Made by a program: the position numbers and the translations under genes | Shown here: positions 44,145 to 60,270 of the stretch, in pieces | How the letters are laid out: each line of letters starts with the position of its first letter | Numbering within the stretch: position 1 is the first letter of the stretch | Notes under the pieces: model-generated | What the model was told of the DNA's origin: nothing | Databases searched by the model: none | What the model saw: only the letters and a program-made list of their open reading frames with translations | NCBI GenBank assembly: GCA_043819945.1 | Contig: JBDREH010000036.1 | Coordinates: 82 to 64,081 of the forward strand | DNA from: Bacillota bacterium | GTDB taxonomy: Bacteria > Bacillota_I > Bacilli_A > Acholeplasmatales > Acholeplasmataceae | DNA length: 64,000 nt | Reading direction: 5' to 3'

Positions 44145-44224
44145 GTGGAAACATATTTTAGCCTAAAAAAGCAACGAAAACAGAGGTTAACCTCGTGAGT
44201 GGAAACATATTTGCTTCTAAAAAA
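44145..44224 (+). repeat. Two 26-bp direct repeats resembling the rlmD 3' end (att-like)
   Basis: gtggaaacatattt-tagc-ctaaaaaa (44145-44170) and gtggaaacatattt-gctt-ctaaaaaa (44199-44224); rlmD has gtggaaactatatcattgcttttactaaaa from 43971. Confidence 0.75.
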
Positions 44225-44226
44225 AA

Positions 44227-45945
44227 TCAAATAATAACCACTCGATACTTCATGATTCTATCGTATTTTTCGCTTCTATAGGATCCTTCAGCAAGGGGTG
44301 TCAAGGCTTCAAATTCATGTCGTCTTTCGGAGAATTCTTTATCTCCATAATTCTTGCTACCAGCTATACAGAATACAACTTCATCAGGTTTTACGGAGAT
44401 CATCTTGAAGATGAATGATCGCAGTATATCGCCATCTACCTCTGTAATGGAATCATTGAGTTGATTCAATGTAGTTTCGATTTTTGCTAATCTTGAACGT
44501 GTATCATAGTTCGCAATGTAGTGTGCTTCAAGCTTCTGAATCTCTACTTGGTTTGTCTTTAGTTGATTCGTAAATCCCATGTACTTTTGATTGAAGTCTA
44601 ACTCGGATAAGTTTGGGTTTTTTATTTGCACATCTATCAAGTTTGATATCAATTTTTCAATGTTCTCATTTTCAGTTCGAAGCTCATCTATTCTCATCTC
44701 AACATCCGTTATTTTGATTGTTGATTGAATGATTTTTTGAATAGTTGGAATTATCATTCTATCTGCAAGAAAGACTTCATTAATCATTTCTATGGTTGCT
44801 CCTTCGAGAAGTTCTTGGTATGTGGCCTTAGCTTTACAATTTGCTTTGCCATCAATATAACCACCACATTGTTGCATGACTCGTTCAGCGGGAGTTCCGT
44901 AGTTCCAATATCTCCGTTTAAGTGTTCTACCACACTCTGAACAAATGATGAATGCCGAGAATGGATAAGTCGCATTGTATTTAGCTAAGTTTTTATCTTT
45001 GCCCACTCTAACTCGGCCACGATCCTTTCTGATCTGTTGAGCGATTAGGAAGGTTTCTTTATCGATGATAGCTTCGTGTGAATGCTCTGTATGAAATTTT
45101 GGTGCAATATCGTTATTTTGGACTTTACGATGTGTTAGGTAATCGATCGTAATTGTTTTTTGCTGAACAAGGTCACCAGTATACTTTTCGTTTTTAAGAA
45201 TACTAGCAACTGTCGACATACTCCATTTGGTTGCACCAGCACCAGTCTTAGCTCCGATGGATTCCATGTGTTTAGCAATATTTGCTGGACCCACTCCATT
45301 GATGTACATTTGAAAGACGATACGAACTGAATCTGCTTCATTCGGTTCAACAACCAGGTTACCGCCTTTTTTCTCTTTAGTGTACCCAAGAAACCTAGAA
45401 TGATTCACGATAGGGATTCCGTTATTAAAACGCTTCTGAACGTTCCATTTGACGTTCTCACTCACGTTTCTAGCTTCCTCTTGAGCAATCGATGACATGA
45501 TGGTAAGTGTAAAGTCTACTTTTGGGTCTGAGGAGTAGATGTTTTCTTTTTCAAAATAGATTTCTACATGGATTGCTCGCATTTCTCTAATATAGTTTAG
45601 GCAATCAACTGTGTTTCTTGCGAATCTTGAAATGGACTTTGTAATGACTAAATCAATCTCACCTCTACGTGCAGCATCCATCATATCGTTAAATTGTTTT
45701 CTATGCTTGGTGGAAGTGCCACTGATGCCCTCGTCTGCGTAGATTCCACAGAATATCCACTCTGGATTATTCTGAATTCTTGACGTGTATTCCTCGGTTT
45801 GGGCAATGTAACTTGTCTTCTGTTCCTCGTTGTCGGTTGAGACACGAACATAGGCACAGACGCGTTTTTTGAGCGGTTTGGGAATCAATCCTGTTGAATC
45901 GTAAGCTGGCTTTGGTTGTATAATTCTGACTTGTTTGTTTTGCAT
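44227..45945 (-). CDS. Large serine recombinase (integrase)
   Basis: AYVRVST, YADEGISGT, TKSISRFARN, recombinase domain (FLGY, ILKNEKYTG), zinc ribbon CSECG...CGG...C, coiled coil; AAGGAGG RBS. Confidence 0.95.
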   Translation of the reverse strand: MQNKQVRIIQPKPAYDSTGLIPKPLKKRVCAYVRVSTDNEEQKTSYIAQTEEYTSRIQNNPEWIFCGIYADEGISGTSTKHRKQFNDMMDAARRGEIDLVITKSISRFARNTVDCLNYIREMRAIHVEIYFEKENIYSSDPKVDFTLTIMSSIAQEEARNVSENVKWNVQKRFNNGIPIVNHSRFLGYTKEKKGGNLVVEPNEADSVRIVFQMYINGVGPANIAKHMESIGAKTGAGATKWSMSTVASILKNEKYTGDLVQQKTITIDYLTHRKVQNNDIAPKFHTEHSHEAIIDKETFLIAQQIRKDRGRVRVGKDKNLAKYNATYPFSAFIICSECGRTLKRRYWNYGTPAERVMQQCGGYIDGKANCKAKATYQELLEGATIEMINEVFLADRMIIPTIQKIIQSTIKITDVEMRIDELRTENENIEKLISNLIDVQIKNPNLSELDFNQKYMGFTNQLKTNQVEIQKLEAHYIANYDTRSRLAKIETTLNQLNDSITEVDGDILRSFIFKMISVKPDEVVFCIAGSKNYGDKEFSERRHEFEALTPLAEGSYRSEKYDRIMKYRVVII

Positions 45946-46341: not shown

Positions 46342-46938
46342 TTAAAAGAAATTAGGTATTTGAAATTCTTTTGAAATGGTACCCGCACAGATTCCTGTTA
46401 TTATAATGTTTTCTGCTTGAGATTTTGTAAAGTTAAGTATTTCATCATTAATAAAGAAACTACCACTGCCATCTATGTTGTAAAATATCTTTGAGACATA
46501 TGGACGGCTGTAATATTCAAAGAGCATCACATGGTTTTTATGATACGTCTGTGTGCGCCAGAAGAAGTCTATCTTGTGCTCATTATATCTCACCAGAATG
46601 ACATCATCATATTCTGTATTGATACTGGAGGGTAATACACGCTTGAGTTCCTTCTCAATAATTTCATAGGTTCTAAAAGCGAGTTTGTTGTCACTTTTGT
46701 TTGAGAATGGATTACCAGTTATATGATCAACAGAAATACCGTAAAAGTTTGAGAGCTTGATTAAATCGTGAATCCCGATTTCCCTAGAGCCATTCTCATA
46801 ATTGAGATAACCCTGTCGGGATTTTTTTATGACGTTGGCTACATGAGTCGTAGTCAAGTTGTGAGCTAAGCGTAATCTTTTCAAATTCTCACAAATGAAC
46901 AAATTATTAAAATCATCTTCTGTATTCAATTTAACCAT
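46342..46938 (-). CDS. XRE-family HTH regulator, probable element repressor
   Basis: NLKRLR....LTTTHVA..I..SRQGY.NYENG.RE...DLIKLS.FYGISVD.ITG; divergent from a second XRE. Confidence 0.88.
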   Translation of the reverse strand: MVKLNTEDDFNNLFICENLKRLRLAHNLTTTHVANVIKKSRQGYLNYENGSREIGIHDLIKLSNFYGISVDHITGNPFSNKSDNKLAFRTYEIIEKELKRVLPSSINTEYDDVILVRYNEHKIDFFWRTQTYHKNHVMLFEYYSRPYVSKIFYNIDGSGSFFINDEILNFTKSQAENIIITGICAGTISKEFQIPNFF

Positions 46939-46975: not shown

Positions 46976-47023
46976 ATGATACCACAACAAATGTTGACAA
47001 GTCAATGATAATGTCGACAATAA
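46976..47023. promoter_or_regulatory. Immunity-region promoter with paired ATGTYGACAA operators
   Basis: Minus strand: TTGACT(47005-47000)-18-TATCAT(46981-76) with TG. ATGTTGACAA at 46991-47000 and ATGTCGACAA at 47011-47020. Confidence 0.6.
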
Positions 47024-47173
47024 CTATCAATTCAATATTAAAAATAAGGGTTTTCTGCTATTTGGGAACTCTTTTTGTTGCTATAACGATATTGCTCTTG
47101 TAAGTTATTTTTTGAAAGAATCCTTTCTCATATAATCAAGTCACCATCGAAAATGATGAAAGGAGGACAATTC

Positions 47174-47467
47174 ATGCCTGTTAATGGAACAGGGAAAGTT
47201 CAGAACCGTGACCAAGCAACACCACTACCAAGGTTTTATCTGATTGAACATCGAAATAATCTCGGATTATCGGTTGAAGAAGTGTCAAGATTGCTTAACC
47301 TCTCTCACTATTATTACTACCAAATCGAAAGTGGTCGAAGAGGACAAAAATTACCGATTCCACTTGTTTTAGAACTCATTCGAGTGTTGCAAATCGATGC
47401 AATCAAATTTTTAGAATTAGAAAGTGAACATGTCAAGAAACATAACGAATTCAATCGGATGAAATAA
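47174..47467 (+). CDS. XRE/Cro-like HTH protein
   Basis: LIEHRNNLGLSVEEVSRLLNLS..YY.QIESG.R; AGGAGG RBS gives ATG 47174. Confidence 0.85.
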   Translation: MPVNGTGKVQNRDQATPLPRFYLIEHRNNLGLSVEEVSRLLNLSHYYYYQIESGRRGQKLPIPLVLELIRVLQIDAIKFLELESEHVKKHNEFNRMK

Positions 47468-47583
47468 AAAGACGCCAAGTTTGTACTTGGGATACAAACC
47501 TGGCCAGTAGAAAAGCGACCGCCCTTCTACAATTCCGATTATACAACTCATTACAAATTTAACATACCATTGAAAGGATAAAA

Positions 47584-48504
47584 ATGGACGATAAGGGCTT
47601 TTTTCGTGAGATTATCGAATATTATTTGCAAAGATTCGATATCAAAGAGAACACCAAGCGTTCCTACGGGAAGATGCTTGCCCAGTACGCTGATTATGTT
47701 GATCGCTTGCCTAACCTACCAACCAGGCAAGATGTCATGGCTTATCGTGAACATCTCAAGTCCAGATTAAGAGCTTCATCCGTTCAAAAACACATTGTAG
47801 TGATAAGAGGTTTTTATCGATGGTACTACATTGAGGGATTTGGACCAAATGCAGCTGAAGGTGTTAAGGGTATGAAGATTGAGTCTGACTTTAAGAGAGA
47901 ATCACTTTCGCTTGAAGCAGCTACAAAACTATTAAACAGAGCGAAACGTTATGCAAGTAAGAGCATCATCGGAAAAAGAGATCATGCTCTGATCGCACTA
48001 CTATTAACAACCGGATTAAGAACAATTGAAGTTGAAAGAGCAGATGTCACAGATATCAGCTTCGTGGATGAAACTAAGGTGTTATACATCATGGGTAAAG
48101 GACACGATGAAAAAGATGCGTATGTCAAACTCTCACCAGAAGTCTATGGTTTAATCGAGGATTACTTGATTGAGCGACAAGACGAGTATAAACCACTCTT
48201 TATCAATCATACTAAACCCTACCTGGGAACAAGACTTAGAACACGAATGATTAGTATGGTGGTTAAGGAAATGTTACGTGAAATCGGGATTGATGATCCC
48301 AAATATTCTGCCCATAGCCTAAGGCATACAGCAGCTTCTTTAGCGCTGGATTTAGGTGGAGATTTAGATGCAGCACAACAATTAATGCGCCATAAAGACA
48401 TATCTACCACTAAAATCTATGCTCACAGGTTGAGCAAAGCAAAGAATCATCTAGAATGGCAGATTAGTACTGCGCTGTTTGGAACTACCAAAAAGAAAAA
48501 GTGA
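47584..48504 (+). CDS. Tyrosine recombinase (XerC/D-like)
   Basis: Catalytic set R (TGLRTIEV), K (GKG), HxxR (HSLRH), H (MRH), Y (TTKIY); N-terminal SAM-like domain. Confidence 0.92.
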   Translation: MDDKGFFREIIEYYLQRFDIKENTKRSYGKMLAQYADYVDRLPNLPTRQDVMAYREHLKSRLRASSVQKHIVVIRGFYRWYYIEGFGPNAAEGVKGMKIESDFKRESLSLEAATKLLNRAKRYASKSIIGKRDHALIALLLTTGLRTIEVERADVTDISFVDETKVLYIMGKGHDEKDAYVKLSPEVYGLIEDYLIERQDEYKPLFINHTKPYLGTRLRTRMISMVVKEMLREIGIDDPKYSAHSLRHTAASLALDLGGDLDAAQQLMRHKDISTTKIYAHRLSKAKNHLEWQISTALFGTTKKKK

Positions 48505-48515
48505 AGGGATAACCT

Positions 48516-49259
48516 ATGATTAGAGAGTTTGAACACAATGCCTATGGTAAGGTACGTGCCACGATTGTGGATGATGAGCCTTGCTTCAACCTTAAGGATC
48601 TCTGTCGCATGTTTGAAATAAAAAGCGTATCAGAAATCCGAACCAAACTGAACGACACCAGTATAAAGCTAGTGAGCGTTCCCCACGATAAAACGAATCA
48701 AAATATGTTTTTTGTAACTGCAGACCACCTATCAACCATATTCTTCCAATCCAAGCGCAAAGACGCAGAAGTGATTGGGGATTGGTTGTATCGCACAATT
48801 TTGCCTCTCTTGATCCGCTATGGTACTTATCAAATAGAAGATTTTGAGAATCCGGATAAGGTCATAGAGTTTTTAGATGAATTCCAAGAGCTGAAGGTAA
48901 GAGCAAACATCCTGGAAACAACACTAAAGATGAACACACCAAAAATCAAAGCGATTGATAATCTACTTGGTACAACAAGCTGTGTGGATTTGGATATGGT
49001 CCATGATGTGATCAAGTATAAGAATATCGGTAAAGATGTCTTATTAAAACTACTTAGAGCAACTCATGTCTTGGATGAACAGAATATTCCATTTCAAGAT
49101 TTTTGTGATAAGAAATTATTCAGAGTTGTAGAAGCGAAAGTGGTGTCTGGTGGAACAGTCATCAAATCAACCAAAACATACGTCTATAGAGGCGGTATAT
49201 CATTCATCGAAAGGATACTAAAAGAATACGATGGAAACAAACAACGGAAAGAAAAATGA
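48516..49259 (+). CDS. Phage antirepressor (BRO-N plus KilAC-like C-terminus)
   Basis: GKVRA..VDDEPCFNLKDLC BRO-N start; W....ILP.L.RYGTY; PKI...D.L...K..L..LR C-terminal part. Confidence 0.82.
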   Translation: MIREFEHNAYGKVRATIVDDEPCFNLKDLCRMFEIKSVSEIRTKLNDTSIKLVSVPHDKTNQNMFFVTADHLSTIFFQSKRKDAEVIGDWLYRTILPLLIRYGTYQIEDFENPDKVIEFLDEFQELKVRANILETTLKMNTPKIKAIDNLLGTTSCVDLDMVHDVIKYKNIGKDVLLKLLRATHVLDEQNIPFQDFCDKKLFRVVEAKVVSGGTVIKSTKTYVYRGGISFIERILKEYDGNKQRKEK

Positions 49260-49422
49260 GAATATCTATAGCATTAATGAGCTACAAGAGATACTCCAAG
49301 TTAAAAGACCGACTTTGCTTAAGTACATAAAGACCAAAAGAATCAAAGCATTCAAGGTTGGAAACCAATGGCGAGTGACTCAAGAACACTTAGATGAATT
49401 CATTCAGAAGAACATGAAGTAA
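49231..49422 (+). CDS. Excisionase-type HTH DNA-binding protein
   Basis: YSINELQEILQV...TLLKYIK.KRIKAFKVGNQWRV. Confidence 0.85.
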   Translation: METNNGKKNENIYSINELQEILQVKRPTLLKYIKTKRIKAFKVGNQWRVTQEHLDEFIQKNMK

Positions 49423-49447
49423 AGACAATTGTTAAGCCACTCCACCT

Positions 49448-49515
49448 TTACCGATAATGCTTGTGAACAGTAATGTGAACTACACACGAATATACTGCGA
49501 ACTGTATATCAAGTA
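49448..49515 (+). repeat. Copy 1 of duplicated intergenic hairpin motif
   Basis: ttaccgataatgcttgtgaacagtaatgtgaacta, 31/35 identical to 59957-59991; second block 49500-49515 is 14/16 identical to 60031-60046. Confidence 0.8.
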
Positions 49516-49597
49516 TGCGTGAAGTGGCTTTCAAGTGTCATTTAATAAAAGCCCTTATTGGGCGATTTTTAACTATACCTAGGGAAAGGAATAACTC

Positions 49598-50512
49598 ATG
49601 GCACGACCATTCAAACAAGGCTTACAATACTTTCCTCTCGACGTGAATATTTTTGAAGATGAAAAGATACAGGATCTCAATCTCGCATTTGGTTATTTGG
49701 GTGAAATCATCTACATAAGGTTACTTTCGATGATATACGCCAATGGATACTATTTGGAAAAATCAATCGCTTCACTCGCAAGGACACTCATGAAAAGTAT
49801 TGGTGCCAACTGGACACCAAACCCAATCGACATCGAAGAGGTCATTGTCTATTGTGGGAAAGTGGGTTTATTTAACTACGATCTACTTAAAGAAGATGTG
49901 ATCACATCAAAATCAATTCAAAAACAGTTCATTTTATCTACCAGAAGAAGAAAGAATACCGGTCAGGATAAATACTGGTTACTGGATGAAAAAACGATGT
50001 TGGAACTCAGTATTTTTAACAAAACATCAAAAAACATTAATGTTGACAATAATGAGGTTATTGATAACACAAATGGCGTTATTGGTAGCAATAATCAAGT
50101 TAATGCAGACAATAACCGAGTTAATGTCGACAAAAGTACACAAAAAGAAAAAGAAAAGAAAAAAGAAAGAAAAATTGATAAAGAGGATAAAGAAGATAAA
50201 GGGCCGTACGGCCTCCCTAAATTACATTTTATTACCAATTCTTTAATCAAAAACAAATACATCGATGAGTCATCTCTAGACATCATCAAATTTAACATCT
50301 TGTTTGAAGATTTAATCCATGGGTATGGATTTGAAGATGTCTTATCAGCGGTAGATTATGTGGTTAAGTATTCTAAGAACCCTAATCCACCCATAGAAGA
50401 TAAGTTTGCTTTCATGAGAGAGTCAGTTCAAACAAATTTAAAGCAATTTGAACACAGGAGGAAAACAGCCAATGAGTCATTCGAATCGTGGATTAAACGA
50501 ACCCTTCTATAA
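49598..50512 (+). CDS. Phage replication initiator (DUF4373-like N-terminus)
   Basis: MARPFKQGLQYFPLDV...D.KI..L....G..G..IY..LL..IY..GYY...ITSKSIQKQF; low-complexity linker containing iterons. Confidence 0.85.
   Translation: MARPFKQGLQYFPLDVNIFEDEKIQDLNLAFGYLGEIIYIRLLSMIYANGYYLEKSIASLARTLMKSIGANWTPNPIDIEEVIVYCGKVGLFNYDLLKEDVITSKSIQKQFILSTRRRKNTGQDKYWLLDEKTMLELSIFNKTSKNINVDNNEVIDNTNGVIGSNNQVNADNNRVNVDKSTQKEKEKKKERKIDKEDKEDKGPYGLPKLHFITNSLIKNKYIDESSLDIIKFNILFEDLIHGYGFEDVLSAVDYVVKYSKNPNPPIEDKFAFMRESVQTNLKQFEHRRKTANESFESWIKRTLL
50038..50142 (+). repeat. Five 21-bp tandem iterons within the initiator gene (probable origin)
   Basis: taatgttgacaataatgaggt / tattgataacacaaatggcgt / tattggtagcaataatcaagt / taatgcagacaataaccgagt / taatgtcgacaaaagtacaca, followed by an A-rich tract. 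Confidence 0.8.
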
Positions 50513-50903
50513 GTGGATTGATGATGTTAGAAGAGCGATGAGAAAAGAAAAAGAACTCCAGGAAAAGTTGGGGTTCTATAATATGAAGCTTATTGGGTAT
50601 AAAGGTGTTTCATATGATCGTATTGGATCTTCTGGTTCACGTTCTTCTGGAGATAGTGAGTTGTTGTTTTGGATGGATAAAATAGATAAAACTGAAAAGC
50701 GAATTACACTTAATAATCATGTCATTAACGAGTTTAAGTCATTTGCTCAAAAATTGAATATTACAGAATCAGACATTATTAACGAGTTAGTTTTCAAAGG
50801 TATAATCAATATAGACTCACCCAAAATATCAAAATCAAATCGCTATCAAATCATCAATTCAATTTCGGTAAAACTGTTAAAAAAGAATCACATTACTCAA
50901 TAG
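50472..50903 (+). CDS. Hypothetical phage protein, possibly ArpU/RinA-like late regulator
   Basis: AGGAGG RBS gives ATG 50472; coiled coil with GVSYDRIGSSGS reminiscent of the ArpU linker; last early gene by position. Confidence 0.45.
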   Translation: MSHSNRGLNEPFYKWIDDVRRAMRKEKELQEKLGFYNMKLIGYKGVSYDRIGSSGSRSSGDSELLFWMDKIDKTEKRITLNNHVINEFKSFAQKLNITESDIINELVFKGIINIDSPKISKSNRYQIINSISVKLLKKNHITQ

Positions 50904-50926
50904 ATATAACTAAATCAGAAAACTCC

Positions 50927-50955
50927 TTCGAAAAATGCCAAAAAAATGGTAAAAT
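50927..50955 (+). promoter_or_regulatory. Own promoter of the defence cassette
   Basis: TTCGAA(50927-32)-17-TAAAAT(50950-55) with TG extension. Confidence 0.6.
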
Positions 50956-50990
50956 AAAAAAAGAGTTACTCGATTTTAGGAGGGAAATTT

Positions 50991-52874
50991 ATGATAAAAG
51001 ACATAATAGAGGCTAATAAGAGTCTGGATCCGATTAATGATAAAATAAAGCAATTAAAGGAAATTTTTCCTGGTGCTTTCCAAGGACAAATGATAGATCT
51101 GGAATATATTAAAAATCAACTGAAAGAAACCAGAGTGACAAAAGAAGGATATGAGCTGAATTTTTTAGGAAAATCATATGCTAAGTTGCTAGCTGCTTTA
51201 GAAACTGAAACTGTAATTGAACCAAATCAAACGCATAATAATTTAATTGAAAATAGTAACAGTCAAAACGTTTTTATTTCTGCAGATAATCTAGATGCCT
51301 TAAAGCATTTATTGAATTCATATTGGAGAACGATCAAAGCAATCTACATCGATCCACCATATAACACTGGATCTGATGGCTTTGTCTATAATGACTCATT
51401 CTCTTTTTCAAAAGAAATGTTAATAGAGAAATTAGGGATAAGTGATGAGGAAGCTGAAAGAGTGGTTGAATTAACAAATTCAGGGAGTTCATCACATTCT
51501 GCATGGTTAACATTTATGTATCCAAGGCTTTATTTAGCGAGACAACTTCTTCGTGACGATGGTATTATTTTCATATCAATAGATGACCATGAACAAGCAA
51601 ATTTACGTATTCTTTGTGATGACATATTTGGTGATACAAACTTTCTAGCAAATATAACTCGCGCAACTGGAACACCAACTGGTGGAGGATTTGAAGCATT
51701 TGTAAATGAAGTAGATTATTGCTTAGTCTATGCAAAGGACATTAACCAAATACGTATATCTGGGCTTGCAATGAGCGATGAAGATGCAAAAATATATAAT
51801 CAACAAGATGAAAAAGGCAGATATCTAACCAGAACACTTCGACGAACTGGCGGGGAAGATAGACGTGAAGACCGACCAACTATGTATTATGCTATTAAAT
51901 CTCCGGAGGGAACTGATATTTATCCTATTGGACCAAGTGGATATGAAAGCAGATGGATTTGTGGATCAGATAAGTACAATGAGCTTCTTGAAGATGGATT
52001 AATAGAGTGGAAAAAAGTTGATGATCAGTGGAGTGTGTATCAAAAGTTCTATTTAGAAGGTAGACAAAAGCAACCAGGTAACTTATGGACTGATATTGAA
52101 GGTAATAAGAAAGCCACAAGACAAATTAGAACTCTTTTTGATTCCATGAAAGTATTTGAAACAGCAAAACCACTTGAGTTTATAACTAAAATAATAGAGC
52201 TTAGTTGCCAAGATGGTGATTATATTTTGGATTTTTTTGCTGGATCAGCAACTACTGCACATGCTGTTATGAAAACAAATTCAGAAAAGAATTGGAACTT
52301 AAAATATATACTTGTTCAACTTGATGAAACTGTTAGACAAGGTAGCGATGCTGAAAGAGCTGGATATTCTACAATAGATCAAATTGGTTTTGATAGAATC
52401 ATTAAATCATCAAAACTTGTATCTCAAGAAAACTTGCTTTCCGTAGCTGATTATGGATTTAAGCATTTTAAGGTAAAAAATGTTACATCTAATCAACTTT
52501 CGAAACTTGATTCATTTGTACCCATTGATCTTTTTGATGAAAGAGGTGTACTTGGTGAGTTTGGACTAGATACAGTACTTACAACTTGGGTAAATCTTGA
52601 TGGTTATGGACTTTCAAAAACATGGACTAAAATCGATTTATCGAGTTACGAAGCTTACCAAATGGAAAATACTATTTACCTTCTTAATTCTAATTTAACA
52701 AATAAAGCAGTTAAAACATTGCTGGAGAAATTTGAAGATGAAAATTTCACCTGCAACAAAATTATACTTTTTGGATATTCGTTTGGTATGAGTGAAATAC
52801 AGTCTGTTAAGGATAACTTAAAGCAAGTTGAAGGTATAAAACATATCACACTTGATATTATAGTTAGGTACTGA
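50991..52874 (+). CDS. mod: Type III restriction-modification methyltransferase (Mod)
   Basis: ELNFLGKSYA, DNLDALKHL, IYIDPPYNTG, WLTFMYPRL, DFFAGSATTAHA. Confidence 0.93.
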   Translation: MIKDIIEANKSLDPINDKIKQLKEIFPGAFQGQMIDLEYIKNQLKETRVTKEGYELNFLGKSYAKLLAALETETVIEPNQTHNNLIENSNSQNVFISADNLDALKHLLNSYWRTIKAIYIDPPYNTGSDGFVYNDSFSFSKEMLIEKLGISDEEAERVVELTNSGSSSHSAWLTFMYPRLYLARQLLRDDGIIFISIDDHEQANLRILCDDIFGDTNFLANITRATGTPTGGGFEAFVNEVDYCLVYAKDINQIRISGLAMSDEDAKIYNQQDEKGRYLTRTLRRTGGEDRREDRPTMYYAIKSPEGTDIYPIGPSGYESRWICGSDKYNELLEDGLIEWKKVDDQWSVYQKFYLEGRQKQPGNLWTDIEGNKKATRQIRTLFDSMKVFETAKPLEFITKIIELSCQDGDYILDFFAGSATTAHAVMKTNSEKNWNLKYILVQLDETVRQGSDAERAGYSTIDQIGFDRIIKSSKLVSQENLLSVADYGFKHFKVKNVTSNQLSKLDSFVPIDLFDERGVLGEFGLDTVLTTWVNLDGYGLSKTWTKIDLSSYEAYQMENTIYLLNSNLTNKAVKTLLEKFEDENFTCNKIILFGYSFGMSEIQSVKDNLKQVEGIKHITLDIIVRY

Positions 52875-52876
52875 TT

Positions 52877-55780
52877 ATGGGGTTAATTTTAGAAAAAGGA
52901 TTAAAACATCAAGTAAATGCATTAATTGCCCTTAACAGGGTTTTTCGTGATGTAGATATAAAAAAAGGATCTAAATCCTTCGCAAATCCTTTAATTGACA
53001 TTGAATCTGTAAATCTGAGAAGGAATTTACTGGATTTGAAAAAAGGGCTTCCTTATCAAAATGAGAATAGCAACATAATTGATGATTATTTAAATATTGA
53101 TATAAAAATGGAAACTGGAACTGGGAAAACTTATGTATATACACAATCCGTTTTTGAGTTACATCGAAATTATGGTATAACTAAGTTTATTATTCTTGTA
53201 CCATCTGTTGCTATTAAATTAGGAACAATCAATTTTATTAATTCAAGTGAGACTAGACGGCACTTTAGAGAAATGTATGGAACAGAGATTGATCTTTCTA
53301 TACTCGATGCTAAGAAAAATAAGAAAGAAATTTTTCCCAATGCAATTCGAGAATTTGTCTCTGCATCAGGTTTAATTAAGAATCAGATTAGTGTTCTTGT
53401 CATAAATAATGTTGTGTCACAAAGTTCGTTAACAAAAAACTATTCAAGTGGAGTTGAGGGATTTTATAACCCAATTGATGCTTTAAAAGCTACTAAGCCA
53501 TTTATCATCATTGATGAACCACACAGATTTGGCAAAGATCAAAAAACATTCAACTTTCTACAGGACAGAATAAAACCACAATGTATTATTCGTTTTGGTG
53601 CTACTTTTCCAGAACTTAAAGGTGGGAAGAAAGATTATCATAATCTAGTATATAATCTGAGTAGTTGTGATTCATTCAATCAAAACCTAATCAAAGGTGT
53701 AAGTGTCACACCTTTGGAAACACCTAATGGAACCAATGTTAAGTTAAAACTTAAGTCTGTTGTTAGTAAAACTTCAGCATCTTTTGAAATCAATAACACC
53801 GGTAGAAAACGCGATATTAGTATCGAGTTTAAAAAAGGTGATTCATTAGGTCTAGCCTTTGATGCATTTGCTGGACTGAATATTGATGGTATTGGTAAGA
53901 ATTTTATTGAATTATCAAATGGTCTTTTATTAAATGTCGGGCAAGAGATATTTGCTGACATTTATGATAAGTCATATCAGGAAAGCATGATTGATGTTGC
54001 ACTAGATTCACATTTTTCAACTGAAAAAAAGAATTTTTGCAGACGAGATCAAATTAAAACAATCGCGTTATTTTTTATTGATGATATTTCATCTTATCGA
54101 GGATCGACCGATCGAACACCGTACTTAAGAGAGTATTTTGAAAGTGCATTAATAGCGAAAACCAAAGAAGAAATCGCAATAATCGATAATGGCATACCTA
54201 GAGAAGTAGAATACAAAAAATTCCTTGAAGATTCATTAAAAGACATTTCAGCTACACATGGAGGATATTTCTCACAAGACAACAGTGATAAAGAGTTTGA
54301 AGAAGAAATTGAAAAAATCCTCAAAAAGAAGGAAGAAACTATTTCATTGAAATATGCTAATGGGAAATATAATACTTTTAGATTCATATTTTCTAAGTGG
54401 ACCCTAAAAGAAGGTTGGGATAATCCTAATGTATTTACAATAGCAAAAATCAGGTCAAGTGGAAGCGAAATTTCTAAAATACAGGAAGTTGGACGAGGTC
54501 TAAGATTACCAGTAAACAGTTCATTTTCTCGTGTTTCAAATGAGCAGTTCTATCTGAATTATATCGTTGATTTTACTGAAAAGAACTTTGCACAAAGACT
54601 TATAGATGAAATTAATGGAGATCTTCTTGAGCAACTGACACTTATGGAAGATGTTGTCAAAAAAGTTGCTAAAGATTCAGGCATGTCTTACTTTGGTTTC
54701 ATGGATTTTCTTGTCAAAAATAATTTTATTAATGAGGATCGGGTTGTTAATACAGAAAAAAGAGACGATCTTTTCGCATTATATCCTGATCTTATGATTG
54801 GACTAGCAAGTGGTAAGATTGTAACAACTCCGCCAAAGGCTATTATGCATGAAGTTAAAATTGATAAGACCAACTATCTGAAACTAAAAGATTTATGGAA
54901 GTCTCTTAATTCTAAATACTTTATAACATATCTACCATTAAAAGATGATGAGATAGTTAAGGCGTTATTAGGCATCCTTAAGGACGGTATTGAGAAAAAA
55001 GTTGAAGTTGTTGCAACCACTAAAACAGTTATGTTCAACTTGCTTGATGCAAACCTTGAAGATGGAGCGCAACGAACATATTCGTCAGAAGAAACTATGA
55101 AATATAATGAATTTTTAATGAGAGTAAATAAGTCAACTAGCATACCTCTTAAGTTAATTCATCACTCATTTGTCGAGTATTACAAATTATATCCTTTCAA
55201 GGGTACGCTATTCAATAGAGCATCACTGACATTTTTTGTTATGAAGATTATTGAGTGGAAAAAGGGTACATTGTTTGGTAAGTTTAAGTATGAAAAAATG
55301 GGATTAGAACCAAGTGATACAAGCATTAACGATAAGAACTGGAATTCGCACAAAACTATTACACAAGGTTTACTCGGACGTTTATATGATAAAAATAGTA
55401 AGCCACCCATAAATTATCTATATGATTTATGTGTATATGATTCAAAGATTGAGAAAGACAATATACAATCAGATGTTCAAGGAGTTGAAGTTTTCGGGAA
55501 AATTCCAAAAGGTAGTATTCGTATACCTGTAATTAATGGAGGTTCTTATAGTCCCGATTTTATGTATGTAGTTAAAAGAAATGGTGAAGTATCTGAGCTA
55601 AACTTAGTTATAGAATCTAAAGGTTACGATAAGGCAGAAGATATACCCGTAGACGAACTATTTAAAATCAAATGTGCAGAGGTGTTTTTTAAGCAACTTG
55701 AAAGTGATGGGGTAAAAGTTGAATTTAAAACTCAAATAAATGCAGATAAAATGTATAATATTATTAGGGGGTTGATGTGA
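52877..55780 (+). CDS. res: Type III restriction endonuclease (Res)
   Basis: IKMETGTGKT, DEPH, FSKWTLKEGWDNPNVF, QEVGRGLRLPV, C-terminal YSPDF...VIESKG nuclease. Confidence 0.93.
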   Translation: MGLILEKGLKHQVNALIALNRVFRDVDIKKGSKSFANPLIDIESVNLRRNLLDLKKGLPYQNENSNIIDDYLNIDIKMETGTGKTYVYTQSVFELHRNYGITKFIILVPSVAIKLGTINFINSSETRRHFREMYGTEIDLSILDAKKNKKEIFPNAIREFVSASGLIKNQISVLVINNVVSQSSLTKNYSSGVEGFYNPIDALKATKPFIIIDEPHRFGKDQKTFNFLQDRIKPQCIIRFGATFPELKGGKKDYHNLVYNLSSCDSFNQNLIKGVSVTPLETPNGTNVKLKLKSVVSKTSASFEINNTGRKRDISIEFKKGDSLGLAFDAFAGLNIDGIGKNFIELSNGLLLNVGQEIFADIYDKSYQESMIDVALDSHFSTEKKNFCRRDQIKTIALFFIDDISSYRGSTDRTPYLREYFESALIAKTKEEIAIIDNGIPREVEYKKFLEDSLKDISATHGGYFSQDNSDKEFEEEIEKILKKKEETISLKYANGKYNTFRFIFSKWTLKEGWDNPNVFTIAKIRSSGSEISKIQEVGRGLRLPVNSSFSRVSNEQFYLNYIVDFTEKNFAQRLIDEINGDLLEQLTLMEDVVKKVAKDSGMSYFGFMDFLVKNNFINEDRVVNTEKRDDLFALYPDLMIGLASGKIVTTPPKAIMHEVKIDKTNYLKLKDLWKSLNSKYFITYLPLKDDEIVKALLGILKDGIEKKVEVVATTKTVMFNLLDANLEDGAQRTYSSEETMKYNEFLMRVNKSTSIPLKLIHHSFVEYYKLYPFKGTLFNRASLTFFVMKIIEWKKGTLFGKFKYEKMGLEPSDTSINDKNWNSHKTITQGLLGRLYDKNSKPPINYLYDLCVYDSKIEKDNIQSDVQGVEVFGKIPKGSIRIPVINGGSYSPDFMYVVKRNGEVSELNLVIESKGYDKAEDIPVDELFKIKCAEVFFKQLESDGVKVEFKTQINADKMYNIIRGLM

Positions 55781-58659
55781 TGAAGTCGATTGAAGAGTAT
55801 TTATTATATCTTGATGAGCAAAAGTTTACTCCTGATCAAAAAAGAGCCATTGTAACTTCAAGTAAAAATGTTCAAATTATAGCTTGCGCTGGATCAGGTA
55901 AGACTAGTACTATTGTATCTCGTATCATTTTTCTCATTGTCTCAGGAGTCAGTCCTTCAGAAATTGTCGCTATCACATATACTGAGAAAGCAGCAGCTTC
56001 ACTTAAACAGAAGATATATCAGGAATACGAAAAGGCTATGGGAACATTAGAAGGCTTATCCGATTTATATGTTGGCACAATTCATGGTTATTGTTTGTTC
56101 ATGCTTCAGGAATTTACAGTAGATTTCAAAAATTATGATATTCTTACTGAGATTCAAGCTAAACTACATATTAAGGCAAAACGTTGGGAAAATGGGCTTA
56201 ATGACTGCATGTACTATGTAAAAGAAAATCCGATTCCAAAAAAACTTGTTGGTAAATCTTATTCTAACTGGGAACAATTTAGTGACAGAGTTTCCGCATA
56301 TAAACAATTTCTCGATATTTCTCGCGAGTATGGAATCAAAAAACTTAACGATCCGCACTTAGAAGAATTGATTGCAAAATATGAATTTTCTCTAGCTAGA
56401 GACAAGTACTTTGATTTCACATCAATTCAAATTACTGCACTTGAATATTTCAAGAAACAGTATTTTGATGAGTATCTAAAAAAAATAAAACATTTGATTG
56501 TTGATGAATACCAAGACGTTAATGAAACGCAAGAAGAGATTATTAGATATTTTTATGACCATGGAATTACTGTTTGTGTAGTTGGTGACGATGATCAAAC
56601 TATTTATGAATGGCGTGGAAGTCGATTGAAATATATTAAGGATTTTTCAACTAGGTATTCGAATGTTGAATCTGTTGAACTATCATTGAATTTTAGAAGC
56701 AGCGTAGGTATTACCTCTACAGCTGAGACCTTAATAACAAATAATAATAATCGTCTTTTGAAGACAATGGACAGTGCCAATAACCAGAGTTATGTTAAAG
56801 GTGATATTTTAGGTATATCCTTTAATTCTAGGGAAGATGAAGTCCAATTCATAATTGACAAAATAAATCAAGTAACTGGAAGTAAGTTCTCTCAAAAAGG
56901 TAATGAGTGGGGACTAGGTTATGATGACATTGTAATATTAGTCAGTTCAGTAAAAAAAGTAAATCAACTTATAGAAAAGTTAAATGACTCTAAATTACCA
57001 TTCATTGTCGAAGGAACGCAAAATCTTTTTGAAACCCCCGAAATTATAGCTATTACCGAAACTTTTGAGATGTTGATTTTTCACTATATGCAAATGCTAA
57101 GAACTGGTGTTGAAAATGCAGATAAAATTAAAGCAGCAATAAAGAAAGCACAACAAGAAGTTGTTGATCGATGGAAAGTAGTTGTTTCAGCAGACGAAAA
57201 CCAAATTAACAACGCACTTATTAGTTTTAGAGACGAGTTTCTTGATGCTGTAACTAACCCAAATAAAGGTTATGAATACACGATTCAAAAGAATCTTCAT
57301 GATTTACTATTTGGACTCGGCGCGATGTCAGATAAATTGGATGATAAAGTTTACTATAATATTGGAAAATTCACAGAAATGATTAATGATTTTGAGAAGA
57401 TATTTCTAAAAACCTTTCCAATTGAGCGAATGGAAAAATTTCAAGAATTCCTTATTCAAGATGCGAAGAACATGTATCCTGAAGGATGGATGTCACCCCG
57501 TTTTAATCTAGTAAAAACTTTGCGAGTTATGACTTATCACCAAGCAAAAGGATTAGAGTTTCCCGTGGTATTCCTTCCGTTCTTAACGAAGGATTCTACT
57601 TTTCCTCTTACCCGCGGTGGTGGTGGTATCACAGCATGGTCAATAATTCATAACGATGCAATTAAACAAGAGTTTAATGATAAAGAATCACACCATAGAG
57701 TATTCTACGTAGGAATGACAAGAGCAGAAAAGTTTTTATTTATGACCCGTTCTCCTGGATTCTCAGATAGTGGGAAAACTCAGTATTTGACAGAAGCGAA
57801 ACAATTTATTCAAGCATCTCACTCTGAGTATGTTACTCCAGCTACATGTCTGGACATCAGTTATGAAAAATCGTCAATTGCAAAGTATTCTAATGACGAA
57901 GTCATTACTTTAAATTTTAGCTTGCTTAAGGATCTCTTTGAATGCGGATATAAATTTAAACTATCTAATGTGTTTGGTTTGTACCAACCATTGAATATTC
58001 GTATGGGGTATGGTCAATCAATTCATAGCATGTTAGATTACGTTCACAAGAATTGGCAAAAACTGAATCTTGATGATGAAAGCGTAATATGGGGAATAGT
58101 GAAACGGTTCATGCACTTACCTTATGCATCACCTAAATTGATTCAAGCAGAAACCAATAAAGCATTTGACAGATTACAAAAATACATTATCAATAATAAG
58201 CAAAGATTTAAAAACATTGTTTTTTCCGAGAAGAGAATCGATTTCAAGTTCTCAGATTACTTTTTTATTGATGGAAGAATTGACTTGATAAGAGATGATG
58301 TCAATAAAGAACTGACTATAGTTGATTTCAAATCAGAGTCTGCTTCATTGAGCGCTGATCAAATTAAGAATCAACTCATGATTTATGTTTTAGGTTATGA
58401 AAACATGAAAAGCGAGAAAATATCTTACATTGAATCATATGATATCAATGAAACAAAACCAACGAGAATACCAATATTTGATGAAGATAGAGATGGATTT
58501 CTCAAGGAACTCTCCAAGTGTGAAACAACAATTAAAACAGGTAAGTATTTACGTCACTGTGATTTAGATCCAAATCATAAAAATAGACATTGCAAAGATT
58601 GTTTTTTAAAGAATGTATGCTTAACAGGGAAAAATCCTCCATTAGCTACTTCTAGATAA
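55777..58659 (+). CDS. UvrD/REP SF1 helicase fused to C-terminal PD-(D/E)XK nuclease with Cys motif
   Basis: AGSGKT, DEYQD, GDDDQTIY.WRG, NFRS, TYHQAKGLEF, YVGMTRA; then ECG..., GRIDL...VDFKS, QL.IY, CKDC....C. Confidence 0.9.
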   Translation: MMKSIEEYLLYLDEQKFTPDQKRAIVTSSKNVQIIACAGSGKTSTIVSRIIFLIVSGVSPSEIVAITYTEKAAASLKQKIYQEYEKAMGTLEGLSDLYVGTIHGYCLFMLQEFTVDFKNYDILTEIQAKLHIKAKRWENGLNDCMYYVKENPIPKKLVGKSYSNWEQFSDRVSAYKQFLDISREYGIKKLNDPHLEELIAKYEFSLARDKYFDFTSIQITALEYFKKQYFDEYLKKIKHLIVDEYQDVNETQEEIIRYFYDHGITVCVVGDDDQTIYEWRGSRLKYIKDFSTRYSNVESVELSLNFRSSVGITSTAETLITNNNNRLLKTMDSANNQSYVKGDILGISFNSREDEVQFIIDKINQVTGSKFSQKGNEWGLGYDDIVILVSSVKKVNQLIEKLNDSKLPFIVEGTQNLFETPEIIAITETFEMLIFHYMQMLRTGVENADKIKAAIKKAQQEVVDRWKVVVSADENQINNALISFRDEFLDAVTNPNKGYEYTIQKNLHDLLFGLGAMSDKLDDKVYYNIGKFTEMINDFEKIFLKTFPIERMEKFQEFLIQDAKNMYPEGWMSPRFNLVKTLRVMTYHQAKGLEFPVVFLPFLTKDSTFPLTRGGGGITAWSIIHNDAIKQEFNDKESHHRVFYVGMTRAEKFLFMTRSPGFSDSGKTQYLTEAKQFIQASHSEYVTPATCLDISYEKSSIAKYSNDEVITLNFSLLKDLFECGYKFKLSNVFGLYQPLNIRMGYGQSIHSMLDYVHKNWQKLNLDDESVIWGIVKRFMHLPYASPKLIQAETNKAFDRLQKYIINNKQRFKNIVFSEKRIDFKFSDYFFIDGRIDLIRDDVNKELTIVDFKSESASLSADQIKNQLMIYVLGYENMKSEKISYIESYDINETKPTRIPIFDEDRDGFLKELSKCETTIKTGKYLRHCDLDPNHKNRHCKDCFLKNVCLTGKNPPLATSR

Positions 58660-58672
58660 GTAGGTGACATTA

Positions 58673-59905
58673 ATGAATTTAAACATCCAATATAGTGATT
58701 ATAAGAAGAGTATCGACATACATGGTACTGTTCTTTATCCTGCAGTAATGGTTGCACCGGTGCAAAAAGATGTTTTAAACTGGTTAATTGATGGAAGAAA
58801 AAATCTAAAGATATTTGACCCTTTCCACGGATCAGGTACAGCATTATATGAAGCAGCTAGTATCGAACCAGAAATAGAATTGTTTGGATATGACATAAAT
58901 CCTCTTGCATCACTAATAACGCAGACTAAATTACAAGGAATTGAGATTGCTACGATCGATTCAGATATCAAGTCATTGGAACTTATGTTGCAGTCAGAGT
59001 ATAAATATCCGACACTATCTTTCTACAAGTCTGAAAAATGGTTCAGAAAAGATATTTTAGAAACTTTATCAGAGATCCGTTATGCAATTATGGAAGTTAC
59101 AAGCAAGAGAAATAGACAATATTTCTGGGTAATGCTTTGTGATATCATTCGCTATTATAGCAATACCAGAAGTAGTACTTTTAAACTTCATATGAAAGAA
59201 AATAAGAAGATTGAAGCATTAAAAAACTTGATTATAAAGGATTTCCTAAAGAAAATTAAATCTTCTTTAAAATTCTACAAGAAAAACCTCACTAATTTTG
59301 ACTTAAAAAAAGGGAATTCATTGGAGTTAATTAAAGACCTTGATGATAAATCAATGGATATTATTGTTACGTCACCTCCATATGGAGACAATGCAACAAC
59401 TGTAACATATGGGCAATTTTCATATTTGGCTTTGTCAATAATCGATAAAAATGACATACCTTTTGAAGGTTGGGAGTTATACAACTGTCAGATACTTGAT
59501 TCATCTAGCATGGGGGGAACCCAATCTTTGTCATTAAGTAATGAAAATAGAAAATATATTCAATGGTATTTAAATAGAATTAAACAATCAAAAAGGAAGA
59601 AAGTAGAAAGATTCTTTGCTGATTATTTTGATTTTCTTGATAGTGCTGCACGTGTTTCTAAAGAATATATTGTAATGACTTTGGGGAATAGAACTGTTGA
59701 TAGAGTGAGGATTAATTTGGCAAAAATAACAGTCAAATATCTTCAGGATAAGGGTTTTAACTTTAAGAAAATCTTATCACGCTCAATAGTATCTAAAAGA
59801 ACGCCTGATTACATATTGGTTAACAATTTAAAAACGACGACTATGACGAAAGAATACATAGTTATAATGGAAAAACCCCTACAAACGATTGTAGCAAATG
59901 CTTAA
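58673..59905 (+). CDS. DNA amino-methyltransferase (SPPY type, probably N4-cytosine)
   Basis: H...YPA.M, FDPFHGSGT (motif I), TSPPY (motif IV); AGGTGA RBS gives ATG 58673. Confidence 0.85.
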   Translation: MNLNIQYSDYKKSIDIHGTVLYPAVMVAPVQKDVLNWLIDGRKNLKIFDPFHGSGTALYEAASIEPEIELFGYDINPLASLITQTKLQGIEIATIDSDIKSLELMLQSEYKYPTLSFYKSEKWFRKDILETLSEIRYAIMEVTSKRNRQYFWVMLCDIIRYYSNTRSSTFKLHMKENKKIEALKNLIIKDFLKKIKSSLKFYKKNLTNFDLKKGNSLELIKDLDDKSMDIIVTSPPYGDNATTVTYGQFSYLALSIIDKNDIPFEGWELYNCQILDSSSMGGTQSLSLSNENRKYIQWYLNRIKQSKRKKVERFFADYFDFLDSAARVSKEYIVMTLGNRTVDRVRINLAKITVKYLQDKGFNFKKILSRSIVSKRTPDYILVNNLKTTTMTKEYIVIMEKPLQTIVANA

Positions 59906-59956
59906 GTTGCGATTAAAGTAGCAATTCTACATTGTTGAATATTCATATTGTCTTAG

Positions 59957-60046
59957 TTACCGGTAATACTTGTGAACAGTAATGCCAACTATGAGACAAC
60001 ATATCAACAATTATCGATTAAGTAGTTGTCAACTATATAACAAGTA
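59957..60046 (+). repeat. Copy 2 of duplicated intergenic hairpin motif
   Basis: ttaccggtaatacttgtgaacagtaatgccaacta; enclosed by ttgtctta/tgagacaa. Confidence 0.8.
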
Positions 60047-60103
60047 CTATAGCCTAAAACATAAAAATAGCGATGCTTCATAAATTATTGTGCCGCTGGC
60101 ATG

Positions 60104-60270
60104 TAGACAAAAGTTGACATATTTCATATACTACAATTAGCGTGGAATACTGGCTTTAGTTGAAGCCTAGAAGTGAGAGACTCTCAAATTTGAGGGTTTC
60201 TTTTCTTTTGCAGAAAGAGTTGTAGTATTCAACCCTTGGATAACTTCAGTTTTTGATAAATTAACTGAAC
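60104..60270 (+). promoter_or_regulatory. Late-operon promoter and structured leader with premature terminator
   Basis: TAGACA(60104-09)-17-TATACT(60127-32); hairpins 60152-60167, 60177-60200 plus U-tract, 60245-60269; gaatact/agtattc pairing (60145-51 with 60224-30). Confidence 0.55.

Follow-up and report, generated by a model that had tools for sequence, protein, structure and literature searches.

The window analysed here (64 000 nt; positions 82–64081 of contig C36, in a genome of 1.58 Mb, 35 % G+C and 36 contigs) is occupied from approximately 44.1 kb onward by a prophage whose replication initiator gene contains five copies of an 18-bp imperfect palindrome, and a single further copy of this palindrome, designated P2, adjoins the promoter of the prophage repressor gene. 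We favour, with reasonable though not strong confidence, the interpretation that these iterons of the Lin1244_N initiator family form the replication origin, that the extra copy is read by the initiator at the repressor promoter, and that two further sites resembling the iterons, at 46991 and 60101, are mimics created by −35 boxes.

A first-pass annotation of this DNA had proposed that a 10-mer, ATGTNGACAA, links the immunity switch, the origin iterons and the late promoter, and that one protein, either the initiator or an XRE protein, may bind at all three. Exact copies are indeed present at 46991, 47011, 50040, 50124 and 60101, all on the forward strand, but a sixth site listed at 50103 reads ATGCAGACAA and departs from the motif at one base. 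The window would be expected to hold 1.09 copies, and none of 100 shuffles reached the observed five; genome-wide there are 24 in 1.58 Mb, of which the 19 outside the 13-kb interval that contains the five are spread over the other 1.56 Mb at about 1 per 82 kb. The comparison of element with chromosome that had been suggested as a check therefore shows an excess (5 in 13 kb against 19 in 1.56 Mb), but two of the five sites are merely −35 hexamers, and the enrichment is due to two loci only, the iteron array and 47007–47024.

Palindromic iterons within the initiator gene

The features of the predicted origin are as follows.

49598–50512, forward strand: replication initiator (replisome organiser), 304 aa, with a Lin1244_N N-terminal domain
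50036–50137, forward strand: origin iterons, five 18-bp palindromes starting at 50036, 50057, 50078, 50099 and 50120 (21-bp phasing)
50142–50201, forward strand: A-rich tract directly 3′ of the last iteron, encoding a K/E-rich linker

The true repeated unit is the 18-bp imperfect palindrome GTTAWTG-N4-CAWTAAC, and the 10-mer is its core. The iterons lie within the initiator gene, as the first-pass annotation had said, and the array in which it saw the motif in iterons 1, 4 and 5 is real; what it had missed is that all five 21-bp units (counted from 50037), including the two that lack the 10-mer, fit the palindrome, with 0–3 mismatches to the consensus. The gene product matches Pfam family PF14297 (Lin1244_N) with a score of 65.2 bits (cut-off 25), and phrog_2562 at 4.5e-41. 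In an AlphaFold2 model the N-terminal domain (residues 17–118) is predicted with a pLDDT (predicted local distance difference test) score of 80–90, residues 138–207 are disordered and the C-terminal domain is helical; our search for a solved structure of a relative of the initiator found none. The iterons encode VNVDNN-like heptads in the linker, and because the encoded peptide is a disordered linker, the constraint on the array acts on the DNA rather than on the protein, as is also indicated by the recurrence of the same palindrome in initiators that are only 26–47 % identical and come from several phyla. Relatives with approximately 50 % identical initiators keep the palindrome with a phasing of 21 or 33 bp, and the DNA of the A-rich tract (ACACAAAAAGAAAAAGAAAAG...) is nearly identical between initiators that share only 50 % protein identity. 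The tract is a probable DNA-unwinding element, and five iterons at two-turn spacing followed by such a tract have the make-up of a lambda-style origin in mid-gene. Origins inside initiator genes are routine, and in this respect the predicted origin is an ordinary one.

The palindrome extends well beyond the close relatives of this prophage. A distant set of 78 loci was assembled from IMG/VR, GTDB genomes and cultured phages, with N-terminal domains 26–47 % identical to that of the window initiator, and was searched at a threshold of two or fewer mismatches. The palindrome was found in the equivalent segment of the initiator gene in half of these loci (39/78; 75 matches in 46 kb), as against 7 matches in 597 kb elsewhere and 1 in 297 kb upstream. 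The carriers include Bacteroidota prophages and four cultured phages, in which the palindromic iterons are located as follows.

L156:6373–6423: Enterococcus phage phiFL1A, gp18
L226:1912–1971: Lactococcus phage bIL286, orf16
L227:1873–1923: Lactobacillus phage iLp84
L228:1699–1985: Listeria phage B054, gp52

In all four, a AAAGTAAAG-rich tract lies 3′ of the iterons within the initiator gene. A tblastn test of distant loci from IMG/VR and GTDB found neither the window repressor nor Cro encoded in any of them, and the annotated phiFL1A region contains an ImmA/XRE immunity module. The presence of the palindrome in 39 of 78 initiator genes accompanied by unrelated immunity genes indicates that it tracks the initiator family, and we infer that it is the recognition site, or iteron, of Lin1244_N initiators. 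A literature search found no description of an iteron consensus for this family. GTTAWTG-N4-CAWTAAC together with an A-rich tract would thus be a family-wide iteron consensus for PF14297/DUF4373, a very widespread family that has been little studied experimentally; it renders many prophage origins predictable and testable, with phiFL1A, bIL286, iLp84 and B054 as possible experimental proxies.

A single iteron-type site at the repressor promoter

The immunity switch lies to the left of the initiator gene and contains the following features.

46342–46938, reverse strand: cI-like repressor, 198 aa, with an HTH_3 N-terminal domain
46976–47005, reverse strand: repressor promoter, −35 TTGACT (47005–47000), 18-nt spacer and TG-extended −10 TATCAT (46981–46976)
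46985–46996: P1, a palindrome (CAACA-AA-TGTTG) located within the repressor-promoter spacer
46994–47021, forward strand: predicted rightward promoter TTGACA-N16-GACAAT, with its −10 inside P2
47007–47024: P2, single iteron-type palindrome GATAATGTCGACAATAAC, which includes the 47011 motif; distance to the repressor-promoter −35, 1 nt
47108–47136, forward strand: Cro-proximal early promoter, with a conserved −10 TATAAT (47131–47136) and a weak T-rich −35
47174–47467, forward strand: Cro-like XRE protein; start codon ATG at 47174, with ribosome-binding site AAAGGAGG 7 nt upstream

P2 differs from the 18-bp consensus at one position. Sites with no more than one mismatch occur at 2.6e-6 per bp genome-wide, the remaining 1.55 Mb of the genome has four that match as well as P2 does, and the chance of finding such a site in the 215-bp intergenic region is p ~5e-4. 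With a position weight matrix built from the iterons only, P2 is the fourth-best non-iteron match genome-wide, and the significance is of the same order. Across the 20 kb of prophage DNA in the window, only the array and P2 fit the consensus at two or fewer mismatches. The longer matches quoted in the first-pass annotation are correct: 47009–47023 agrees with iteron 5 over 12 of 12 bases and with iteron 1 at 14 of 15. Near the repressor gene, the adjoining 130 nt contain only one site at four or fewer mismatches, and no second iteron-like site was found there.

A clade of Tenericutes-type prophages has P2 at this same position in approximately 18 sequence variants. Its start is 1–2 nt away from a conserved leftward −35 in 14 of 16 lineages; the repressor promoter to which that hexamer belongs, TTGACN-18-TATAAT, likewise holds its place in 14 of 16 and is often a perfect TTGACA-18-TATAAT. 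The variants retain the G/C positions of the TG-N4-CA dyad and the TAA flank, and the adjacent bases drift. Positions 5 and 14 break the symmetry of the iterons: 37 of 61 have A,A there and none has T,T. In P2 these two positions read T,T in 9 of 18, and in most lineages P2 corresponds to an iteron in inverted orientation. Approximately 100 bp to the right of P2, other lineages have the early promoter in the same place, as TTTTCA-17-TATAAT or TTTTCA-17-TACAAT; the predicted rightward promoter whose −10 lies inside P2 is found only in this phage and in lineage L159. Two lineages with non-canonical iterons (L204 and L019/L076) are also without P2, and no lineage has P2 but lacks canonical iterons. 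Information-content profiles of P2 and the iterons are partly circular, the sites having been chosen by consensus, and were not used as evidence.

The other palindrome of the switch, P1, has a different distribution. In the form GCAACA-N2/3-TGTTGC it is kept in all lineages found, including those without P2 (GCAACA-N3-TGTTGC in L204), and is likely to be the operator of the cI-like XRE repressor. The copy of the 10-mer at 46991, which the first-pass annotation had counted as a member of the motif, is made up of the right arm of P1 fused to a palindrome, TTGACAAGTCAA, that gives back-to-back −35 boxes (TTGACA). Its flanks are not kept: relatives have ATGTTTACAA, ATGTAGCG or ATGTGGCT in its place, or lack it, and the hexamer there is TTTACA. 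By a hand count, 7 of the 14 specified positions of the iteron consensus are wrong at 46991.

Between the divergent promoters there is also a conserved dyad or hairpin at 47046–47081, followed by TTTTTGTTGC. Its arms vary between lineages in a compensatory manner and in the L008-type lineage form a loopless 16-bp palindrome, GAAAGTTATAACTCTC; these features fit a site for a protein of variable specificity, possibly Cro, better than a terminator. The sequence TTTGTTGC is the reverse complement of the left arm of P1. In one metagenomic relative (L181:540–5000) an insertion of approximately 4.2 kb separates the repressor gene from cro and splits the switch region.

Candidate readers of P2

We regard binding of P2 by the initiator as the somewhat more probable case, because the site belongs to the site family of the initiator, because P2 is absent where the iterons are non-canonical, and because the DNA-reading helices of the XRE proteins fit it poorly. 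Several observations weigh against this reading. P2 has been lost in L145 and in L031/L190 despite canonical iterons, and is therefore dispensable. It co-segregates with the repressor allele and not with the initiator: between the window and L163/L166 the initiators are 99 % identical and the iterons near-identical, the repressors are 80 % identical and P2 differs at six positions, and within that group P2 is invariant where the iterons vary. The central 4 bp of P2 covaried only marginally with those of the iterons of the same lineage (p 0.04–0.06) when the sites were chosen without bias; a value of p = 0.0015 obtained from a hand-picked set was rejected as biased. No copy of the palindrome was found upstream in the distant phages that have the same iterons, and a Foldseek search with the initiator model gave no significant match (all E values at least 2, mostly winged-helix proteins) and did not identify a DNA-binding fold. 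Linkage over 70 bp is a sufficient explanation for the co-segregation of P2 with the repressor allele, with which a pairing of repressor and P2 would be compatible too. Protein alignments over IMG/VR, GTDB genomes and JGI metagenomes revealed no natural mosaic, whether of the same repressor with a different replication module or of one initiator clade with a different repressor, L181 having been rejected as such since it merely carries the insertion described above, and the argument on the reader of P2 is for this reason indirect.

An alternative is that one of the XRE proteins of the phage, either Cro or the cI-like repressor, uses P2 as its operator. Its resemblance to the iterons would then be an inherited coincidence, or would reflect a repressor that binds the iterons too and so directly blocks the origin in lysogens. 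In favour of this, P2 has the form of site read by helix–turn–helix dimers, a dyad of 18 bp, it adjoins the −35 of the repressor promoter somewhat as lambda OR2 adjoins PRM, and it follows the repressor allele when repressor and initiator have recombined; moreover, neither the recognition helix of the repressor (KSRQGY[L/V]NYENG) nor the P2 consensus changes from lineage to lineage. However, that helix is unchanged in lineages with and without P2, and L145, L190, L204 and L207 have lost P2 while keeping P1, so that P2 does not track the DNA-reading helix of the repressor, nor does it track that of Cro, which is strongly variable among lineages that share the P2 consensus. P2 is present in a single copy in the switch, P1 and the dyad at 47046–47081 differ from it in sequence, so that the switch holds no set of related dyads of the cI/Cro type, and a repressor promoter that is often a perfect consensus should need no activator. 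Since the palindrome also follows the initiator family into phages of other phyla that lack these XRE genes, we consider an XRE operator at P2 unlikely, and the XRE protein that the first-pass annotation had offered as a common binder is an unlikely candidate for the same reason. Less probable again is the absence of any common factor, in which case P2 would resemble the iterons by chance in AT-rich DNA, or would be an UP-like element, and the 10-mer would cluster by virtue of TTGACA-like boxes. The sites at 46991 and 60101 are look-alikes of just this kind, the commonest variant elsewhere in the genome is ATGTAGACAA, and P2 occupies the −37 to −54 territory of UP elements. Set against this are the rarity of sites with one mismatch or none and the retention of the dyad G/C positions and TAA flank through some 18 variants, fixed G/C positions being unexpected in an A/T-rich UP element.

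The least probable proposal, which we think very improbable, is the full three-way model, in which one protein acting at the switch, the origin and the late promoter would couple lysogeny, replication and late transcription. It turns on the following feature.

60101–60132, forward strand: predicted late (packaging-operon) promoter, TAGACA-N17-TATACT

The 10-mer at 60101 does overlap the late −35, as the first-pass annotation had noted (TAGACA at 60104–60109, N17, TATACT at 60127–60132). The sequence there, ATGTAGACAAAAGT, is the sole match in the 1.58 Mb genome at one or no mismatch to the 14-nt core of iteron 5, and every copy of the motif lies on the transcribed strand. Nonetheless, approximately 0.1 such matches would be expected by chance in the element with the five iteron cores as queries, and 60101, like 46991, misses 7 of the 14 specified palindrome positions by hand count. 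The site consists of the late −35 with chance flanks: the ATGT part is changed to TTAT in L217 (CTTATAGACAAAAAT) and to ATAT in L016 (CATATAGATAAAAAT), only the two hexamers TAGACA-N17-TATACT and a downstream CGTGGAATACTGGCT block are conserved, and the ATG belongs to a different dyad, TGCC-N3-GGCA. A single protein at the origin and the switch is thus plausible, and at the late promoter it is unsupported; the observation behind the three-way link was partly confirmed, and of its interpretation the origin–switch part probably holds and the late-promoter part probably fails. A short common motif that contains TTGACA-like hexamers can evidently make false links between control regions.

Two other classes of site, stoperator-like dispersed repressor sites as in mycobacteriophage L5 and a tyrosine-recombinase core site, were considered and rejected on anatomy, the sites being few and dyad-symmetric, with 7-bp arms and a 4-bp spacer.

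A possible route from replication to the switch

If the initiator reads P2, as we think most likely, its effect can be pictured as follows. The protein would be produced only with the early lytic operon switched on, and would occupy P2 as it fills the origin iterons, so that the state of the replication module would be fed back onto the lysis–lysogeny switch. With P2 at approximately −37 to −54 relative to a near-consensus promoter, hindrance of RNA polymerase seems likelier than activation, and the presumed outcome of occupancy would be lytic commitment. In this phage and L159, occupancy would also cover the −10 of the predicted rightward promoter, in the manner of plasmid autorepression, though that promoter is not conserved. 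That the initiator is wired into the switch in this way, a single and usually inverted iteron allowing it to shut off or tune repressor synthesis, we put forward as a tentative proposal, somewhat more doubtful than binding of P2 itself. A by-product of the same tentative proposal would be a Lin1244_N recognition site that is nearly constant from Bacillota and Tenericutes to Bacteroidota despite divergence of the protein to approximately 30 % identity. If true, the arrangement would constitute a commitment device, not described for lambdoid switches, that acts once replication proteins accumulate.

Comparison with known systems

The lambda origin lies in the middle of gene O and, with its variants in Stx phages, consists of imperfect inverted repeats of approximately 19 bp to which a dimeric initiator binds, with AT-rich DNA alongside (PMC7466680). 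The five 18-bp imperfect palindromes and A-rich tract in the initiator linker described here are alike in plan, but the initiator is of the Lin1244_N/PF14297 family and unrelated to lambda O, the phasing is 21 or 33 bp, and a copy of the iteron is present in the switch. To our knowledge, the lambda operators are unrelated in sequence to the iterons and no O-binding site has been described in the immunity region. In a divergent region of the cI/cro type, P2 also recalls OR2 at PRM, being a dyad beside the −35 of the promoter for the maintenance repressor. Its centre is, however, at approximately −45.5 rather than −42, it is a single copy of a site from the initiator family, and the near-consensus promoter should need no activation.

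Parallels are also offered by iteron plasmids, in which an inverted repeat derived from the iterons lies at a promoter and the initiator (RepE of F, RepA of pSC101 and pPS10, and pi of R6K) controls transcription as well as replication. P2 is likewise an inverted repeat that matches the iteron consensus with one mismatch. Unlike the Rep operators, it lies by a divergent repressor promoter, the initiator gene being 2.6 kb away, beyond four genes and a terminator-like hairpin; the origin iterons are palindromic too, and no distinction between monomer and dimer sites is visible.

The oriR region of SPP1 and the crr region of P4 are multi-site clusters that act in replication. In SPP1, the replication fork may be stalled by G38P at oriR (PMC3485210). 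As with G38P at oriR and the alpha protein at crr, the prophage described here would have an origin-binding protein with a second site far from the primary origin, but P2 is single and locked in register with the −35 of a promoter, and it is followed by the conserved dyad or hairpin and not by an AT- or purine-rich tract such as follows the origin iterons. The stoperators of L5 are many, asymmetric, in one orientation and in transcribed regions, unlike the array and P2, which are dyad-symmetric and are the only such sites in 20 kb at two or fewer mismatches. We regard the family-wide iteron consensus, and likewise the iteron copy beside the repressor promoter, as variations on known themes, as exemplified by the Rep operators and SPP1 oriR, and an iteron held in register with a repressor promoter suggests that a replication protein may read the immunity switch, a possible new form of switch wiring.

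Other features of the element

The remaining genes of the element mentioned here are as follows.

44227–45945, reverse strand: serine integrase, large, at the end of the element
47584–48504: tyrosine recombinase, second gene of the early operon
between the tyrosine recombinase and initiator genes: Ant, then an HTH_17 protein
50991–59905: cargo block with type III restriction–modification, UvrD-nuclease and methyltransferase genes
60291: small terminase (a ParB-methyltransferase is also present in the element)

The nearest public relatives of the element are in metagenome-assembled genomes labelled Tenericutes (HGW-Tenericutes-2 and RIFOXYA12_FULL_35_10), and megablast against cultured phages gave no match. 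The early module (serine integrase, repressor, Cro, tyrosine recombinase, Ant, HTH_17 protein and initiator) is syntenic in every relative, and the pairing of two recombinases per element, serine integrase and tyrosine recombinase, is kept in all of them. At the left edge of the element, a 26-nt direct repeat, 85 % identical (44145–44170 and 44199–44224), is situated immediately beyond the integrase gene and is possibly related to the attachment site. The cargo (Mod at 50991, Res at 52877, a UvrD-helicase/PD-(D/E)XK nuclease fusion at 55777 and a further methyltransferase at 58664) is an insertion that separates the replication module from the packaging genes, and relatives have other cargo at this spot.

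A terminator-like hairpin at approximately 49549–49575 precedes the initiator gene. Between the late promoter and the small-terminase gene (60139–60202) lie a highly conserved leader, which is the CGTGGAATACTGGCT block, and then a second terminator-like hairpin (60175–60202); the presence of hairpins ahead of both genes suggests that the two operons may be subject to control of the antitermination type. Finally, a 35-nt direct repeat, 89 % identical, has one copy upstream of the initiator gene (49448–49482) and one upstream of the late promoter (59957–59991), with a weaker likeness over approximately 100 nt, and this repeat, unlike the 10-mer, links the control of replication with that of packaging.

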